A program made the position numbers and the translations under genes. DNA of 64,000 bases from Escherichia phage T4: sequence record OL964735.1. The stretch is one strand, 5' to 3'. Position 1 is the first letter of the stretch; each line of letters opens with the position of its first letter. The notes beneath the pieces were generated by a model. It ran no database searches. It was not told the DNA's origin and saw only the letters and a list, made by a program, of their open reading frames with translations. Below are positions 15,954 through 61,615 of the stretch, piece after piece.

Positions 15954-16008
15954 ATTAAAAAAGGCCCAACCAAAAAGGAAGGGCCAAAACTATAGACTAA
16001 AGGTCACA

Positions 16009-16176: not shown

Positions 16177-16202
16177 GATTGTCTCCTCTGAATTATATCT
16201 AT

Positions 16203-16427
16203 TTATACAACTCTCATATGCATATCAATGCCCATATCTTTAGAATAAAAATATTCATCAAGATATCCGGCAAATTTTCCTTTAATATAAAGGACATCTT
16301 CACCACACGGGTGGTCGGCCAGGATACGAATATCCTGACGCTTAAGATTATGCTTTTTCATTAAGAATTGAATTTCCGTTTCAAATTCTTCTTCATAATT
16401 AAAAGCATCATCAATGCTATATCTCAT
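16203..16427 (-). CDS. hypothetical protein (T4 uvsY.-1 position)
   Basis: 74-aa ORF. Confidence 0.65.
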   Translation of the reverse strand: MRYSIDDAFNYEEEFETEIQFLMKKHNLKRQDIRILADHPCGEDVLYIKGKFAGYLDEYFYSKDMGIDMHMRVV

Positions 16428-16888: not shown

Positions 16889-16918
16889 TCATTATACCAC
16901 GTTTTAACGTGAAGCATT
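16889..16918 (-). promoter_or_regulatory. middle (MotA-dependent) promoter for uvsY
   Basis: minus strand TGCTTCA MotA box, 13-nt spacer, TATAAT -10; about 50 nt upstream of uvsY ATG. Confidence 0.65.
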
Positions 16919-17315
16919 ATACTCTATTACTGGAAGCCAGCTGCAGTTTTATCTGCTCAATATCATCAGGATTATCGATGACCGAAAAGCGTATTTCTAC
17001 TATCAGAGTATAATCGTCATAAACGGGTATCACATTAACTGCTAATTTATCAATACGTGGCTCATAGTTTCTTACTGCGCTTTCGATATTGCGTTCAACC
17101 GTGTCAGCAGTAAGAGGAGTCATATTTTCAAAAAGCTGGTCTGATAAATCACATCCAAATTCAGGGTCAAACGGTCTTGAACCTTTTCTTGTTGTAATAA
17201 TTCCCAAAAGACTGTTTTTAATTGACCTTAATCCAAGCGATCTGGAAACGTCTTTGTTCCAATCCATTTTCATTTCCGGGTCAATATCAGAATAAAGCTT
17301 ATTAATATTTGCCAT
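16917..17315 (-). CDS. 25: baseplate wedge protein (T4 gp25)
   Basis: 132-aa ORF, recognised sequence. Confidence 0.93.
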   Translation of the reverse strand: MANINKLYSDIDPEMKMDWNKDVSRSLGLRSIKNSLLGIITTRKGSRPFDPEFGCDLSDQLFENMTPLTADTVERNIESAVRNYEPRIDKLAVNVIPVYDDYTLIVEIRFSVIDNPDDIEQIKLQLASSNRV

Positions 17316-17941
17316 TATAGTAACTCAAAGAACTCTTTGAGGCCTCTTATTACGTGAGCATGGGTTTTTCCACACTCTGGACACTTAATTGGAACAGCCA
17401 AATAAACGGTAGGCTTTAAAAGCATATCTTTTATAGCTACAATATCTGACTCTGTGATGATAGAATATAAATCTTCTAGTTCCTTTTCATTTAAGTCTTC
17501 AACTGGAATGCTTTCCCCGTTAGCATGAATCGTTTCTATACATGATACTATCATGTGGGCTATATTTTTATCATCAAAAATTTTAGGGTATCGGAATTTA
17601 ATTTTAATGTCACCTAGTGTATACCAGAGGTCTTCTGGTGCATCTATTTGTGTATGTAATAGATTTATATGGGTTGGTATTTCAGTTCCACAGGTGCACT
17701 TCCAGGAGTTTTCGTGATTAACTTCACCGAGAGAATGTGCCCATAAATGAATCAACAATAGTTCTGATTCTTGGCGGTTTAAATCTTTTGCATTTGTGCA
17801 GTCTTTGATTAGCTTTTTAACAATTACTTCTACGGAACCATTATTTTTGGCAGTAATAAGTTCTAGATATTCTTTAAGCGTGAATGCGCGACAATTGATT
17901 ATTTTAGAACCAACTCTCACATCAAATTTGTATTCATACAT
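17315..17941 (-). CDS. 26: baseplate hub protein (T4 gp26)
   Basis: 208-aa ORF; stop overlaps gene 25 start. Confidence 0.9.
17316..17347 (-). promoter_or_regulatory. structured translation initiation region of gene 25 (hairpin between SD and AUG)
   Basis: minus strand GAGG is about 27 nt from the AUG, with a 7-bp hairpin CTCAAAG-AGTT-CTTTGAG in between. Confidence 0.6.
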
Positions 17942-17962
17942 ATTTAGCTCCTTTATTTATCA

Positions 17963-17970
17963 TATTTATA
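17963..17970 (-). promoter_or_regulatory. late promoter TATAAATA for gene 26
   Basis: part of palindrome TATTTATAAATA at 17963-17974. Confidence 0.6.
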
Positions 17971-17974
17971 AATA
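17967..17974 (+). promoter_or_regulatory. late promoter TATAAATA for gene 51
   Basis: part of palindrome TATTTATAAATA; 17 nt upstream of gene 51 ATG. Confidence 0.65.
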
Positions 17975-17991
17975 GAATAAAAGGAGCATCT

Positions 17992-18741
17992 ATGGCAAAC
18001 ATTATTCGTTGTAAATTACCAGATGGTGTTCATCGTTTTAAACCATTTACGGTAGAAGATTATCGAGATTTTTTGTTAGTTCGAAACGATATAGAACATC
18101 GGTCACCACAAGAACAAAAAGAAATAATTACTGATTTAATTGATGATTATTTTGGAGACTATCCGAAGACTTGGCAACCATTTATATTTTTGCAGGTATT
18201 TGTAGGGTCAATAGGTAAAACTAAAGTACCGGTCACATTTATATGTCCAAAATGTAAAAAAGAAAAGACAGTTCCATTTGAAATATATCAAAAAGAATTA
18301 AAGGAACCTGTTTTTGATGTAGCTAATGTTAAAATTAAATTAAAGTTTCCTTCTGAGTTTTATGAAAATAAAGCAAAGATGATTACTGAAAATATTCATT
18401 CTGTTCAAGTAGATGAAATATGGTATGATTGGAAGGAAATTAGCGAGTCCAGTCAAATAGAACTAGTTGACGCCATCGAGATAGAAACATTAGAAAAAAT
18501 TCTCGATGCAATGAATCCTATTAATTTAACTCTACACATGTCATGCTGTAATAAGTACATTAAAAAATACACTGATATAGTAGACGTGTTTAAGCTATTA
18601 GTTAACCCAGATGAGATATTTACTTTTTATCAAATTAATCACACACTCGTAAAAAGTAATTATAGCTTAAATTCAATAATGAAAATGATTCCTGCCGAGC
18701 GCGGATTCGTATTAAAACTGATTGAGAAGGATAAACAATAA
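17992..18741 (+). CDS. 51: baseplate hub assembly catalyst (T4 gp51)
   Basis: 249-aa ORF. Confidence 0.9.
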
Positions 18742-19916
18742 TGAGTATGTTGCAACGCCCCGGATATCCAAATCTCAGCGTTAAATTATTTGATAGCTAC
18801 GACGCTTGGAGTAATAATAGATTTGTTGAATTAGCTGCTACTATTACCACATTAACTATGCGGGATTCTCTTTATGGCCGAAATGAAGGAATGCTGCAGT
18901 TTTATGATTCTAAAAACATCCATACAAAAATGGATGGAAATGAAATAATTCAGATTTCTGTAGCTAATGCAAATGATATTAATAATGTTAAAACACGAAT
19001 TTATGGATGTAAGCATTTTTCCGTGTCAGTAGATTCAAAAGGTGATAACATCATTGCTATTGAATTGGGAACTATTCATTCTATAGAAAATCTTAAATTT
19101 GGTAGACCATTTTTCCCTGATGCAGGTGAATCTATAAAAGAAATGCTTGGTGTCATTTATCAGGATCGCACATTATTAACTCCAGCAATAAATGCTATAA
19201 ATGCTTATGTTCCTGATATTCCATGGACTAGCACATTTGAAAACTATTTGTCATATGTAAGAGAAGTTGCTCTAGCTGTAGGAAGCGACAAATTTGTATT
19301 TGTATGGCAAGACATCATGGGCGTTAACATGATGGACTATGATATGATGATAAATCAAGAACCATATCCAATGATTGTCGGTGAGCCATCTTTAATAGGT
19401 CAATTCATCCAAGAATTAAAATATCCATTAGCATATGATTTCGTTTGGTTGACTAAATCGAATCCTCACAAACGTGACCCAATGAAAAACGCTACTATCT
19501 ATGCGCATTCATTTTTAGATTCTTCAATACCAATGATTACTACAGGAAAGGGTGAAAACTCTATTGTGGTGTCAAGGTCAGGTGCTTATTCTGAAATGAC
19601 TTATAGGAATGGATATGAAGAAGCTATTCGTCTTCAAACTATGGCACAATATGACGGCTATGCTAAATGTTCTACTATCGGTAATTTTAACTTGACTCCT
19701 GGTGTTAAAATTATTTTTAATGATAGTAAAAACCAATTTAAAACAGAATTTTACGTTGATGAAGTTATCCATGAATTATCCAATAATAATTCAGTAACTC
19801 ATCTATATATGTTCACTAATGCAACGAAACTGGAAACAATAGACCCAGTTAAGGTTAAAAATGAATTTAAATCTGATACTACCACTGAAGAAAGTAGTTC
19901 TTCCAATAAGCAATAA
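18741..19916 (+). CDS. 27: baseplate hub protein (T4 gp27)
   Basis: 391-aa ORF. Confidence 0.93.
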
Positions 19917-20394
19917 AGAAGTTTCTATTCCTAAAATGGGTCTTAAACATTATAACATTTTAAAAGATGTTAAAGGTCCTGATGAAAATTTAAAACTTCT
20001 CATTGATTCTATTTGTCCGAATTTATCACCGGCAGAAGTTGATTTCGTTTCTATTCATTTATTGGAATTTAATGGAAAGATTAAATCTCGTAAAGAAATA
20101 GATGGTTATACTTATGACATTAATGATGTTTATGTATGCCAAAGATTGGAATTTCAATACCAAGGAAATACATTTTATTTTAGACCTCCTGGAAAATTTG
20201 AACAATTTTTAACGGTGAGCGATATGTTATCTAAATGCTTACTTAGGGTCAACGATGAAGTTAAAGAAATTAATTTTCTTGAGATGCCAGCATTCGTTTT
20301 AAAATGGGCAAATGATATTTTTACAACTTTAGCAATTCCTGGCCCTAATGGTCCAATAACTGGAATTGGCAATATTATTGGATTATTTGAATGA
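19861..20394 (+). CDS. 28: baseplate hub distal protein (T4 gp28)
   Basis: 177-aa ORF overlapping gene 27 by 56 nt in another frame. Confidence 0.88.
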
Positions 20395-22163
20395 AAAAGC
20401 CACAAGAAATGCAAACGATGCGTAGAAAAGTTATTTCAGATAATAAACCAACACAGGAAGCGGCTAAATCCGCTTCTAATACTTTATCTGGGCTTAATGA
20501 CATATCTACGAAATTGGATGATGCTCAAGCTGCTTCTGAATTAATAGCTCAAACTGTCGAAGAAAAATCGAATGAAATAATTGGAGCAATTGACAATGTA
20601 GAAAGCGCAGTGAGTGATACTACTGCCGGTTCTGAGTTAATTGCTGAAACTGTCGAAATTGGCAACAATATTAATAAAGAAATCGGTGAATCGCTCGGAA
20701 GCAAATTAGATAAATTAACAAGTTTACTAGAGCAAAAAATCCAGACAGCTGGAATTCAACAGACTGGAACTAGTTTAGCTACGGTTGAAAGCGCTATTCC
20801 TGTTAAAGTCGTTGAGGATGATACTGCTGAATCTGTGGGTCCTTTATTACCAGCTCCTGAAGCAGTTAATAATGATCCTGACGCTGATTTTTTCCCTACC
20901 CCTCAGCCAGTTGAGCCAAAGCAAGAATCACCAGAAGAAAAACAGAAAAAAGAAGCATTTAACTTAAAATTATCTCAAGCTTTAGATAAATTAACGAAGA
21001 CTGTTGATTTTGGATTTAAAAAATCCATTTCAATTACTGATAAAATATCAAGCATGCTATTTAAGTACACCGTCAGTGCTGCTATTGAAGCTGCTAAAAT
21101 GACTGCAATGATATTGGCTGTTGTTGTTGGAATAGACCTTTTGATGATTCACTTTAAATACTGGTCAGATAAATTTTCAAAAGCCTGGGATTTGTTTAGT
21201 ACAGACTTTACCAAATTCTCTAGCGAAACCGGAACTTGGGGTCCTTTATTACAGAGCATCTTTGATTCTATTGATAAAATTAAACAACTTTGGGAAGCGG
21301 GAGATTGGGGTGGATTGACAGTAGCTATTGTTGAAGGGCTTGGAAAGGTTCTTTTTAATTTAGGTGAACTTATTCAATTAGGTATGGCTAAATTATCTGC
21401 AGCAATTCTTCGAGTCATTCCTGGTATGAAGGATACTGCTGATGAAGTAGAAGGAAGAGCATTAGAAAATTTCCAAAATTCTACTGGAGCATCTCTCAAT
21501 AAAGAAGACCAAGAAAAAGTAGCAAATTATCAAGATAAACGAATGAATGGAGACCTTGGCCCAATAGCAGAAGGACTAGACAAAATCTCTAACTGGAAAA
21601 CTCGTGCATCTAACTGGATTCGTGGTGTAGATAATAAAGAAGCGCTGACTACCGACGAAGAGCGTGCGGCAGAAGAAGAAAAATTAAAGCAACTTTCACC
21701 GGAAGAAAGAAAAAATGCTTTAATGAAGGCTAATGAAGCTCGTGCTGCGATGATTCGTTTTGAAAAATATGCCGATTCAGCTGATATGAGTAAAGACTCA
21801 ACGGTTAAATCAGTTGAAGCTGCCTATGAAGACCTTAAAAAACGGATGGATGACCCGGATTTAAATAATTCACCGGCAGTTAAAAAAGAACTTGCTGCTA
21901 GATTTTCTAAAATTGATGCTACTTATCAAGAGCTCAAGAAAAATCAGCCTAATGCCAAACCTGAAACTTCTGCTAAATCACCAGAAGCGAAACAAGTCCA
22001 GGTGATTGAAAAGAACAAAGCACAGCAAGCTCCTGTTCAACAAGCATCTCCTTCGATCAATAATACTAATAATGTTATTAAGAAAAATACTGTCGTTCAT
22101 AATATGACACCTGTAACGAGCACGACTGCTCCTGGTGTATTTGATGCGACTGGAGTTAATTAA
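20391..22163 (+). CDS. 29: baseplate hub / tail length determinator (T4 gp29)
   Basis: 590-aa ORF. Confidence 0.93.
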   Translation: MKKPQEMQTMRRKVISDNKPTQEAAKSASNTLSGLNDISTKLDDAQAASELIAQTVEEKSNEIIGAIDNVESAVSDTTAGSELIAETVEIGNNINKEIGESLGSKLDKLTSLLEQKIQTAGIQQTGTSLATVESAIPVKVVEDDTAESVGPLLPAPEAVNNDPDADFFPTPQPVEPKQESPEEKQKKEAFNLKLSQALDKLTKTVDFGFKKSISITDKISSMLFKYTVSAAIEAAKMTAMILAVVVGIDLLMIHFKYWSDKFSKAWDLFSTDFTKFSSETGTWGPLLQSIFDSIDKIKQLWEAGDWGGLTVAIVEGLGKVLFNLGELIQLGMAKLSAAILRVIPGMKDTADEVEGRALENFQNSTGASLNKEDQEKVANYQDKRMNGDLGPIAEGLDKISNWKTRASNWIRGVDNKEALTTDEERAAEEEKLKQLSPEERKNALMKANEARAAMIRFEKYADSADMSKDSTVKSVEAAYEDLKKRMDDPDLNNSPAVKKELAARFSKIDATYQELKKNQPNAKPETSAKSPEAKQVQVIEKNKAQQAPVQQASPSINNTNNVIKKNTVVHNMTPVTSTTAPGVFDATGVN

Positions 22164-22171
22164 GGAATAAT

Positions 22172-23266
22172 ATGGCAATTGTTAAAGAAATAACTGCTGA
22201 TTTAATTAAAAAGTCCGGTGAGAAAATTTCAGCCGGACAGAGTACTAAATCAGAAGTAGGAACTAAAACATACACAGCCCAGTTTCCAACTGGGCGTGCT
22301 AGTGGTAATGACACTACAGAGGACTTCCAGGTAACAGATCTATATAAGAATGGATTATTATTTACTGCATACAATATGTCATCTAGGGATTCTGGAAGTC
22401 TTAGATCGATGAGATCTAACTACTCTTCTTCATCTTCGAGTATTTTACGTACAGCTAGAAACACTATTAGTAGTACAGTATCAAAACTATCAAATGGATT
22501 AATATCAAATAATAATTCAGGAACAATAAGTAAATCTCCTATCGCAAACATTCTTTTACCGAGATCTAAATCTGATGTTGATACATCATCACATAGATTT
22601 AATGATGTTCAAGAAAGCCTTATCAGTAGAGGCGGAGGTACTGCTACTGGTGTGCTAAGTAATATTGCTTCAACCGCAGTATTTGGGGCACTGGAAAGTA
22701 TAACACAAGGTATAATGGCTGATAATAATGAACAGATTTATACGACAGCCAGAAGTATGTATGGTGGTGCTGAAAATAGAACTAAAGTGTTTACATGGGA
22801 TTTGACTCCACGTTCAACAGAAGATTTAATGGCTATTATTAATATCTATCAATATTTTAACTATTTTTCTTATGGTGAAACGGGTAAATCTCAATATGCT
22901 GCTGAAATAAAGGGGTATTTAGATGATTGGTATCGTTCTACGTTAATTGAACCTTTATCTCCGGAAGACGCAGCTAAAAATAAAACACTATTTGAGAAAA
23001 TGACATCGAGTTTAACTAACGTTCTAGTAGTTTCAAACCCGACAGTTTGGATGGTGAAAAACTTTGGCGCAACATCTAAGTTTGATGGAAAAACGGAAAT
23101 ATTTGGTCCATGTCAAATACAGAGCATTAGATTTGATAAAACACCTAATGGTAACTTTAACGGATTAGCTATTGCTCCAAACCTCCCTAGTACATTTACT
23201 CTCGAGATTACTATGAGAGAAATTATCACGTTAAACCGTGCTTCTTTATATGCGGGGACTTTTTAA
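22172..23266 (+). CDS. 48: baseplate tail tube cap (T4 gp48)
   Basis: 364-aa ORF. Confidence 0.92.
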   Translation: MAIVKEITADLIKKSGEKISAGQSTKSEVGTKTYTAQFPTGRASGNDTTEDFQVTDLYKNGLLFTAYNMSSRDSGSLRSMRSNYSSSSSSILRTARNTISSTVSKLSNGLISNNNSGTISKSPIANILLPRSKSDVDTSSHRFNDVQESLISRGGGTATGVLSNIASTAVFGALESITQGIMADNNEQIYTTARSMYGGAENRTKVFTWDLTPRSTEDLMAIINIYQYFNYFSYGETGKSQYAAEIKGYLDDWYRSTLIEPLSPEDAAKNKTLFEKMTSSLTNVLVVSNPTVWMVKNFGATSKFDGKTEIFGPCQIQSIRFDKTPNGNFNGLAIAPNLPSTFTLEITMREIITLNRASLYAGTF

Positions 23267-24231
23267 TGTATTCTTTAGAGGAATTTAATAATCAAGCAAT
23301 AAACGCAGATTTCCAACGTAATAATATGTTTAGCTGCGTTTTTGCGACAACTCCATCAACTAAAAGCTCTTCGTTGATAAGTTCAATTAGCAACTTTTCT
23401 TATAATAACTTGGGCCTAAATTCAGATTGGTTAGGATTAACTCAAGGTGATATTAATCAGGGAATTACCACGCTAATTACAGCTGGCACACAAAAACTGA
23501 TAAGAAAATCAGGAGTCAGTAAATATCTTATTGGTGCCATGAGTCAACGTACAGTTCAAAGTTTATTAGGCTCATTTACAGTTGGTACATATTTAATTGA
23601 CTTCTTTAACATGGCATATAACTCATCTGGATTGATGATATACTCTGTAAAAATGCCAGAGAATAGATTATCCTATGAAACTGACTGGAACTATAATTCT
23701 CCTAATATTCGTATAACCGGAAGAGAATTAGACCCTTTGGTTATTTCATTTAGAATGGATTCAGAAGCTTGTAACTATCGTGCAATGCAAGACTGGGTTA
23801 ACTCCGTTCAAGACCCAGTAACTGGACTGCGTGCTTTGCCACAAGATGTCGAGGCAGATATTCAGGTTAATCTTCATTCTCGCAATGGATTACCTCATAC
23901 TGCGGTGATGTTCACCGGATGCATTCCAATATCAGTGAGCGCTCCTGAGTTATCATATGATGGAGATAACCAAATAACTACATTTGATGTTACTTTTGCG
24001 TACAGAGTGATGCAGGCTGGAGCAGTTGATAGGCAAGCTGCGCTTGAATGGCTTGAATCTGCTGCTATAAATGGTATTCAAAGCGTTCTCGGAAATAGTG
24101 GAGGTGTTACTGGACTATCTAATTCGCTTTCACGACTTAGTAGATTAGGGGGAACTGCAGGAAGCATTTCAAACATTAATACTATGACAGGAATTGTCAA
24201 TTCGCAGAGTAAAATATTAGGAGCAATATAA
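23266..24231 (+). CDS. 54: baseplate tail tube initiator (T4 gp54)
   Basis: 321-aa ORF, TAATG overlap with gene 48. Confidence 0.92.
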   Translation: MYSLEEFNNQAINADFQRNNMFSCVFATTPSTKSSSLISSISNFSYNNLGLNSDWLGLTQGDINQGITTLITAGTQKLIRKSGVSKYLIGAMSQRTVQSLLGSFTVGTYLIDFFNMAYNSSGLMIYSVKMPENRLSYETDWNYNSPNIRITGRELDPLVISFRMDSEACNYRAMQDWVNSVQDPVTGLRALPQDVEADIQVNLHSRNGLPHTAVMFTGCIPISVSAPELSYDGDNQITTFDVTFAYRVMQAGAVDRQAALEWLESAAINGIQSVLGNSGGVTGLSNSLSRLSRLGGTAGSISNINTMTGIVNSQSKILGAI

Positions 24232-24235
24232 CAAT

Positions 24236-24260
24236 GGGGACCGAAAGGTCCCCATATTTT
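24236..24260 (+). terminator. intrinsic terminator after gene 54
   Basis: GGGGACC-GAAA-GGTCCCC hairpin followed by ATATTTTTATTT. Confidence 0.7.
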
Positions 24261-37756: not shown

Positions 37757-39344
<1,588 letters not shown>

Positions 39345-57224: not shown

Positions 57225-57247
57225 GGGAGCCTTCGGGTTCCCTTTTT
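57225..57247 (+). terminator. intrinsic terminator after gene 35
   Basis: GGGAGCC-TTCG-GGTTCCC hairpin (one GU pair) followed by TTTTTCTT. Confidence 0.75.
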
Positions 57248-57250
57248 CTT

Positions 57251-57258
57251 TATAAATA
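57251..57258 (+). promoter_or_regulatory. late promoter TATAAATA for gene 36
   Basis: exact motif 23 nt upstream of ATG 57282. Confidence 0.7.
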
Positions 57259-57281: not shown

Positions 57282-57947
57282 ATGGCTGATTTAAAAGTAG
57301 GTTCAACAACTGGAGGCTCTGTCATTTGGCATCAAGGAAATTTTCCATTGAATCCAGCCGGTGACGATGTACTCTATAAATCATTTAAAATATATTCAGA
57401 ATATAACAAACCACAAGCTGCTGATAACGATTTCGTTTCTAAAGCTAATGGTGGTACTTATGCATCAAAGGTAACATTTAACGCTGGCATTCAAGTCCCA
57501 TATGCTCCAAACATCATGAGCCCATGCGGGATTTATGGGGGTAACGGTGATGGTGCTACTTTTGATAAAGCAAATATCGATATTGTTTCATGGTATGGCG
57601 TAGGATTTAAATCGTCATTTGGTTCAACAGGCCGAACTGTTGTAATTAATACACGCAATGGTGATATTAACACAAAAGGTGTTGTGTCGGCAGCTGGTCA
57701 AGTAAGAAGTGGTGCGGCTGCTCCTATAGCAGCGAATGACCTTACTAGAAAGGACTATGTTGATGGAGCAATAAATACTGTTACTGCAAATGCAAACTCT
57801 AGGGTGCTACGGTCTGGTGACACCATGACAGGTAATTTAACAGCGCCAAACTTTTTCTCGCAGAATCCTGCATCTCAACCCTCACACGTTCCACGATTTG
57901 ACCAAATCGTAATTAAGGATTCTGTTCAAGATTTCGGCTATTATTAA
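57282..57947 (+). CDS. 36: long tail fibre distal connector (T4 gp36)
   Basis: 221-aa ORF. Confidence 0.93.
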
Positions 57948-61063: not shown

Positions 61064-61615
61064 ATGAAAATATATCATTATTATTTTGACACTAAAGAAT
61101 TTTACAAAGAAGAAAATTACAAACCGGTTAAAGGCCTCGGTCTTCCTGCTCATTCAACAATTAAAAAACCTTTAGAACCTAAAGAAGGATACGCGGTTGT
61201 ATTTGATGAACGTACTCAGGATTGGATTTATGAAGAAGACCATCGCGGAAAACGCGCATGGACTTTTAATAAAGAAGAAATTTTTATAAGTGACATTGGA
61301 AGCCCGGTTGGTATAACTTTCGATGAGCCCGGCGAATTTGATATATGGACTGATGACGGTTGGAAAGAAGACGAAACATATAAGCGAGTTTTAATTCGTA
61401 ATAGAAAAATTGAAGAATTATATAAAGAGTTCCAAGTTTTAAATAATATGATTGAAGCTTCTGTCGCCAATAAAAAGGAAAAATTCTATTATAAAAACCT
61501 TAAGCGGTTCTTTGCTCTTTTAGAAAAGCATGAGCATTTAGGTGGTGAATTCCCTTCATGGCCTGAAAAAGAACAGAAGCCTTGGTATAAGCGTTTATTC
61601 AAGCATTACGTATAA
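61064..61615 (+). CDS. 38: tail fibre assembly chaperone / adhesin (T4 gp38)
   Basis: 183-aa ORF. Confidence 0.93.
   Translation: MKIYHYYFDTKEFYKEENYKPVKGLGLPAHSTIKKPLEPKEGYAVVFDERTQDWIYEEDHRGKRAWTFNKEEIFISDIGSPVGITFDEPGEFDIWTDDGWKEDETYKRVLIRNRKIEELYKEFQVLNNMIEASVANKKEKFYYKNLKRFFALLEKHEHLGGEFPSWPEKEQKPWYKRLFKHYV

Follow-up and report, generated by a model that had tools for sequence, protein, structure and literature searches.

The 12-bp palindrome that lies between the divergent baseplate genes 26 and 51 of T4 very probably serves as a compact bidirectional T4 late promoter, built from two back-to-back gp55-dependent elements that overlap. We analyzed this site within a 64,000-nucleotide stretch of the Escherichia phage T4 record OL964735.1 (hereafter the window). 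Positions 17963–17974 of the window read TATTTATAAATA, which is its own reverse complement. The octamer TATAAATA is present on both strands, at 17967–17974 on the plus strand and at 17963–17970 on the minus strand, such that the two copies are offset by 4 bp and have TATA in common. The gap that holds them is exactly 50 bp long (17942–17991), running between the minus-strand gene 26, which starts at 17941, and the plus-strand gene 51, which starts at 17992. Annotation in the T4 record AF158101 names the flanking genes as 25 and 26 (minus strand) and 51, 27, and 28 (plus strand). A preliminary description of this DNA had claimed a perfect 12-bp palindrome at 17963–17974, the octamer on both strands at a 4-bp offset, and a 50-bp gap between divergently oriented baseplate genes, and each of these claims is borne out by the positions just given. 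Its reading of the site as overlapping divergent late promoters for 26 and 51 is supported by the octamers, the geometry of the leaders, conservation, and a prediction for the related phage RB69 in a promoter table of Nolan et al. (2006; PMC1524935). The features of the gap are as follows.

17963–17974, no strand: palindrome TATTTATAAATA, the core common to the two probable late promoters, invariant in 12 of 15 junctions.
17967–17974, plus strand: TATAAATA (−13 to −6), probable late promoter of gene 51 and the rightward hub cluster, from octamer match and geometry.
17963–17970, minus strand: TATAAATA (−13 to −6), probable late promoter of gene 26 and the leftward unit 26-25, from octamer match and geometry.
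17980, plus strand: predicted start of the gene 51 late transcript, an A, giving a 12-nt leader (NC_000866 position 116467).
17957, minus strand: predicted start of the gene 26 late transcript, an A, giving a 16-nt leader (NC_000866 position 116444).
17981–17986, plus strand: Shine-Dalgarno sequence (SD) AAGGAG of gene 51, in the outer palindrome arm AAAGGAGC.
17948–17953, minus strand: SD AAGGAG of gene 26, in the outer palindrome arm that reads GCTCCTTT on the plus strand.

T4 late promoters carry TATAAATA at −13 to −6, with about 50 such sites listed (PMC1524935, PMC2988020), and have no −35 requirement (PMC2988020). They are recognized with gp55 as the sigma factor and gp33 as co-activator, while the gp45 sliding clamp acts as the activator at the upstream end of the complex (PMC2988020, PMC7892883); the late open complex is melted from −12 to +2 (PMC7892883). 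Geiduschek and Kassavetis caution that in vivo activity has been proven for not all of the 50 listed T4 late sites (PMC2988020). At the 26|51 junction, the perfect consensus octamer is found on both strands of the palindrome, and the sequence just 3′ of each copy is A/T-rich (GAATAA on the plus strand and TGATAA on the minus strand, five of six bases being A or T in each). The predicted starts at 17957 and 17980 are 23 bp apart, and the predicted leaders, 12 nt for gene 51 and 16 nt for gene 26, both contain AAGGAG and are unstructured. A scan of the gap (17942–17991) found no sigma-70-type hexamer pair, and the GenBank T4 records AF158101, HM137666, and KJ477684 annotate no promoter feature at 26|51. 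This geometry is common in the window, where 14 of the 19 perfect TATAAATA sites have A/T-rich sequence just downstream and a predicted leader of 9–29 nt (measured from the predicted start to the next start codon of an ORF of at least 40 amino acids); the site at 61611 has a leader of 12 nt, equal to that of the gene 51 site. One further candidate, GATAAATA at 17954–17961 on the minus strand, was discounted as a promoter because its start would fall within the gene 26 SD.

In the arrangement we propose, RNA polymerase carrying gp55 and gp33 and activated by gp45 would start leftward at about 17957 into 26-25 and rightward at about 17980 into 51-27-28-29-48-54, and either late transcript would have a short unstructured leader with its SD exposed. 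The octamers overlap by their first four bases, TATA, the largest overlap that the consensus allows. Because T4 late promoters need no −35 element, each promoter can occupy the upstream region of the other. The pair resembles canonical T4 late promoters, such as P23 (6283–6290), in having TATAAATA at −13 to −6, A/T-rich sequence downstream, no −35 element, and a short leader with an SD. Canonical promoters, however, mostly stand alone, whereas the 26|51 pair sits on opposite strands with four common bases. The window also holds a tandem pair of perfect TATAAATA sites, at 2031–2038 and 2090–2097, which lie 59 bp apart upstream of a 163-amino-acid ORF at 2112.

The T4 pair reportedly was mapped by S1 or primer extension by Scarlato, Storlazzi, Gargano, and Cascino in 1989 (Virology 171:475), in a paper whose title is said to include 'overlapping promoters direct divergent transcription of the base plate gene cluster'. 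The overlapping 26|51 late promoters are real, strongly conserved, and already known T4 biology. In RB69, additional file 5 of Nolan et al. (2006; PMC1524935) predicts the late promoters Pl:118620(+) and Pl:118672(−), and we checked that these tabulated positions lie in the RB69 26|51 gap, on the same palindrome as in T4. For Aeh1, the same table predicts Pl:122785(+) and Pl:122835(−), positions that correspond to the Aeh1 4|48 gap. Both pairs appear there as coordinates in a table, which carries no discussion of the palindrome or its conservation.

Judged by its count alone, the 12-mer is only marginal against chance: the window contains one exact copy of TATTTATAAATA where 0.07 are expected, and at least one copy arose in 7 of 100 shuffles. 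The perfect octamer is clearly enriched, with 19 copies against 9.3 expected and none of 100 shuffles reaching 19. Variants of TATAAATA with one mismatch are at background (196 against 191 expected in the window), which makes them unusable for finding extra promoters. The case that the palindrome is not a chance occurrence comes instead from its position and its conservation. Two near-copies of the palindrome, each reading TCTTTATAAATA with one mismatch, are present at 38289–38300 and 57247–57258 in the window. In the latter, an ORF at 57282 has a normal late promoter at 57251, 18 nt upstream, and in the former, the perfect TATAAATA at 38293 is without a plus-strand ORF downstream.

For a view of the junction across related phages, a tblastn search with gp51 returned 1379 phage records, and the locus was taken from 16 lineages with gp51 identities from 96% to 28%. 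The head-to-head 26|51 layout occurs in 14 of these 16 lineages, which together with T4 itself makes 15 junctions. The identical 12-mer is present in 12 of the 15, representing 11 non-redundant lineages and reaching down to 35% gp51 identity. The carriers are Tequatrovirus (T4, AR1), Mosigvirus, Karamvirus, Jiaodavirus, Gaprivervirus, Marfavirus, Dhakavirus, Winklervirus, Acinetobacter Zedzedvirus, Serratia phage 4S, and Proteus Bragavirus. When these junctions are aligned on the palindrome, the core is 100% identical, and the 20-nt flanks are 36% and 38% identical. The base quartet TATT (17963–17966) corresponds to −17 to −14 of the gene 51 promoter, a position that is variable in the other late promoters of the window; its invariance here argues for selection on the gene 26 direction itself.

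The remaining junctions of the 15 keep a late-type motif on each strand but alter the spacing. In Aeromonas phages 44RR2.8t and 50AhydR13PP, the palindrome is 10 bp long, TATTTAAATA, and the half-sites overlap by 6 bp in the 44RR type. Krischvirus keeps TATAAATA on the gene 51 side, and its gene 26 motif, which resembles ACTAAATA, stands apart. That the spacing drifts while the halves keep matching the late promoter of their lineage indicates two promoters rather than a single dyad operator. Pseudotevenvirus and Slopekvirus carry 54-51-26-25 on one strand, with no divergent junction; a late motif is absent upstream of their gene 51, where there is just a terminator-like hairpin. A comparable element occurs at a different junction of Aeh1, whose 4|48 gap (NC_005260 122786–122837) holds a 14-bp palindrome, TATTTAGCTAAATA, composed of two back-to-back copies of CTAAATA, the sequence given as the Aeh1 late consensus in the promoter listings of PMC1524935.

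The palindrome also recurs at other divergent junctions. A scan of IMG/VR for copies of the palindrome with CTCC and GGAG as flanks yielded at least 120 loci, a count without a denominator, and 20 of the 120 matches listed are 26|51 junctions. Among the other 100 matches listed, at least 58 have divergent ORFs with SDs around the palindrome, and 34 have clear homologs of T4 ORFs. Ten flanking proteins were sampled from the matches listed, and eight match annotated virion-protein families; the families found among these matches are tail-tube cap (gp48-type), head closure (gp4-type), head-tail adaptor, tail tube, portal, and virion structural protein. Other opposite-strand pairs in these loci were few among the matches listed, too rare for comparison.

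The two directions lead into the following units and genes.

17992–24255, plus strand: rightward unit 51-27-28-29-48-54, ending at the strong terminator-like hairpin at 24234–24255.
16917–17941, minus strand: leftward unit 26-25; the next perfect minus-strand TATAAATA is at 16200–16207.
17315–17941, minus strand: gene 26, 208 amino acids, PF12322 (T4_baseplate), paralog of gp51 by Pfam, profile searches, and BLASTP.
17992–18741, plus strand: gene 51, 249 amino acids, PF12322 (T4_baseplate), paralog of gp26 by Pfam, profile searches, and BLASTP.

No other perfect plus-strand TATAAATA occurs between 17974 and the hairpin at 24234–24255, which leaves the palindrome as the sole consensus late promoter for 51, 27, 28, 29, 48, and 54. 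The hairpin, directly after gene 54, is strong, bidirectional, and terminator-like. A second hairpin, of the form GGCCC...GGGCC, lies at about 15960–15990 between the convergent ends of uvsW.1 and uvsY.-2, and together the two hairpins bound two divergent late units. 

Sequence comparison shows gp26 and gp51 to be paralogs, encoded head to head with the promoter on the axis between them. Both are full-length members of Pfam PF12322 (E values of 9e-64 and 8e-55, respectively), profiles built from the gp26 family and the gp51 family find each other with E values of 1e-8 to 1e-24, and BLASTP aligns the two proteins at 20% identity (E value 1e-5). Both are listed as baseplate hub assembly chaperones. 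The symmetric layout may reflect this head-to-head placement of two paralogous hub-chaperone genes. Outside the gap, we found no trace of a 26/51 duplication at the DNA level, the proteins being 20% identical, so the gap may have gained its symmetry by functional convergence rather than kept it as a relic. The window differs from AF158101.6 at 10 positions over 1.5 kb around the palindrome, all of them inside gene 51 (18120–18681) and clustered as swaps of 2–4 bases, and the intergenic 26|51 region is identical in the two. Over this 1.5 kb, the window has 100% identity with several resequenced T4 genomes and 99.5% with AF158101; because the window matches the resequenced records exactly, the gene 51 differences look like old sequencing errors in AF158101.6.

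The symmetry of the gap extends beyond the 12-mer, in an element that covers nearly the whole gap.

17945–17992, no strand: imperfect palindrome of 48 bp with 24-nt arms, 71% complementary, from the sequence and its predicted folds.

Its outer arms, GCTCCTTT and AAAGGAGC, are the SDs of genes 26 and 51. In the predicted folds of transcripts that run through the gap on either strand, the energy is −13.0 to −14.7 kcal/mol (z about −2.8 to −2.9) and the downstream SD pairs with an anti-SD, whereas RNAs beginning at the predicted late starts have predicted folds of 0 to −0.3 kcal/mol and a free SD. The SD/anti-SD pairing is predicted in most relatives at variable strength. Such a hairpin is an automatic by-product of two SDs standing head to head. 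The arrangement is like the hairpins that gate translation of gene e and I-TevI in T4 and that late transcripts escape (Uzan and Miller, 2010; PMC3014915): here too, by prediction, the SD pairs when RNA reads through, and late transcripts are without the 5′ arm because their promoter is situated within the hairpin. It is unlike them in that the 5′ arm at 26|51 is the complement of the SD of the opposite gene and the read-through transcripts are hypothetical.

Several other explanations for the palindrome can be weighed against this evidence. There is virtually no chance that it is an accident of A/T-rich DNA. Although the 12-mer did turn up in those seven shuffles of the window, the site falls precisely in the gap of a divergent late gene pair, with an SD correctly spaced on either side, and its invariance across genera whose flanks have diverged effectively refutes a chance origin. 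A perfect palindrome that is invariant in many lineages could also be primarily a dyad-symmetric site for a dimeric DNA-binding protein, such as DsbA or another regulator, with the promoter matches secondary; T4 DsbA does have weak A/T-rich sites that overlap two late promoters (PMC2988020). We consider this very improbable. The spacing of the halves varies, from a 4-bp overlap in T4 and 6 bp in the 44RR type to full separation in Krischvirus, and the halves still match the late consensus. The Aeh1 palindrome is rebuilt from that phage's own late consensus, and T4-like contigs carry the 12-mer between other, unrelated pairs of divergent late genes. Moreover, two TATAAATA octamers that overlap by 4 bp always form a perfect palindrome, and the symmetry needs no extra explanation.

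It is similarly improbable that only the gene 51 direction works, with the minus-strand octamer incidental and gene 26 served by transcripts that start further upstream. Such a reading is consistent with activity having been proven for not every T4 TATAAATA (PMC2988020) and with gene 26 lying on the strand used in early and middle transcription. It does not readily account for TATT at 17963–17966 being invariant in 12 lineages though it falls at −17 to −14 of the gene 51 promoter. In addition, the predicted fold of a read-through RNA hides the gene 26 SD (ΔG −14.7 kcal/mol, z −2.8), an RNA from 17957 is predicted to be unstructured, and there is no sigma-70-like promoter nearby.

Two known arrangements can be set beside the overlapping pair. 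The T4 4|53 junction (AF158101 about 77338–77385, outside the window) is similar in that a 47-bp gap serves divergent late genes with one perfect TATAAATA per strand, and the polymerase footprints must overlap. In the numbering of the extracted locus, in which the gap is 17339–17385, its octamers are these.

17350–17357, plus strand: TATAAATA of the 4|53 junction.
17365–17372, minus strand: TATAAATA of the 4|53 junction.

Unlike those at 26|51, the 4|53 octamers face each other, 7 bp apart, and their predicted starts cross. The 5′ ends of the 4|53 RNAs are accordingly predicted to share a few nucleotides of complementarity, whereas the predicted 26|51 RNAs are back to back and do not overlap. 

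The second arrangement is the class of symmetry-based sigma-70 bidirectional promoters described by Warman, Forrest, Wade, and Grainger (bioRxiv 10.1101/2020.01.31.928960), in which −10 elements overlap on opposite strands, as they do here by 4 bp; in that class the coincidence arises from the partial symmetry of the element. Divergent starts in that class are 7–25 bp apart at preferred intervals, with 23 bp among those enriched (bioRxiv 10.1101/2020.01.31.928960), and the 26|51 separation would be 23 bp if the predicted starts hold. The two starts of a sigma-70 pair stimulate each other reciprocally (bioRxiv 10.1101/2020.01.31.928960). The 26|51 element differs from this class in using phage gp55, an 8-bp element, and clamp-dependent activation, without recognition by housekeeping sigma-70, and in that both of its directions serve essential mRNAs. 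By analogy, then, the element works like a promoter of the Warman type but is not a sigma-70 member.

The preliminary description had also held that the two promoters must compete for the same DNA. This follows from the geometry, as the predicted bubbles for the two directions (17968–17981 and 17956–17969) overlap; with the polymerases covering the same ~60 bp, one polymerase at a time would be accommodated. Published biochemistry establishes a polarity rule for the clamp, namely that the activating strand break must sit in the non-transcribed strand (PMC2988020). The two directions would therefore need opposite clamp orientations, and because of this rule the orientation of the arriving gp45 clamp, rather than free competition, may set the direction in which a given DNA molecule fires.

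Published RNA-seq data at 5 min after infection give mean reads of 122 for gene 26 in wild type and 8.7 in a motA amber mutant, and 287 and 16, respectively, for gene 51 (PMC6024815). Genes 25, 26, 51, and 27 drop ~14- to 18-fold in the motA amber mutant at this time, and 12, wac, and 13 only 2- to 3.4-fold (PMC6024815 Table S1); the 5-min counts for 51 and 27 are low (PMC6024815). The 26 and 51 directions are co-regulated at 5 min, a time too early to bear on the ratio or interplay of the late promoters.

A stronger version of competition is that the promoters interfere with each other and that their relative strengths fix the ratio of 26-25 to 51-54 transcripts; the preliminary description had suggested that competition could set the ratio of the two hub-assembly transcripts. 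The steric overlap of the predicted bubbles and the conservation of the arrangement would fit this idea, as would a per-nucleotide read density for 51 that is ~2x that of 26, albeit at the early 5-min time point. We nevertheless regard it as unlikely. Because the two octamers do not differ, only the flanks could introduce an asymmetry, and these are not conserved. The gp55 polymerase binds promoters weakly, and the site may be occupied too seldom for interference to have an effect. As activation depends on which way the clamp faces, each direction may use a clamp population of its own. The starts of sigma-70 bidirectional promoters, moreover, stimulate rather than hinder each other (bioRxiv 10.1101/2020.01.31.928960). 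Finally, the overlap is dispensable, as Krischvirus separates the motifs and Pseudotevenvirus and Slopekvirus are without a divergent junction.

A more elaborate proposal treats the palindrome as a polarity-sensitive switch, with replication geometry, not promoter strength, balancing the hub-chaperone operons and a hairpin keeping read-through RNA untranslated. On this proposal, gp45 clamps would activate only the promoter that has a 3′-OH loading site on its non-transcribed strand. Behind a fork, the direction of firing would then differ between the two daughters, with 51-54 transcribed from the leading-strand daughter and 26-25 from the lagging-strand one. As a separate part of the proposal, the SD/anti-SD hairpin of the 48-bp palindrome would keep read-through RNA from being translated. 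Taken jointly, these elements make a distinctly unlikely whole.

Beyond T4 biology that was already known, our analysis makes small additions: the 12-mer is invariant in most Straboviridae that have 26 and 51 head to head, the genes on either side encode paralogs, and the palindrome recurs at divergent late junctions. As the sole consensus late promoter of the central-hub cluster (51, 27, 28, 29, 48, and 54 in one direction and 26-25 in the other), the site is a control point for production of the baseplate hub, and it offers a clean natural test bed for clamp-activated polymerases on a shared promoter.
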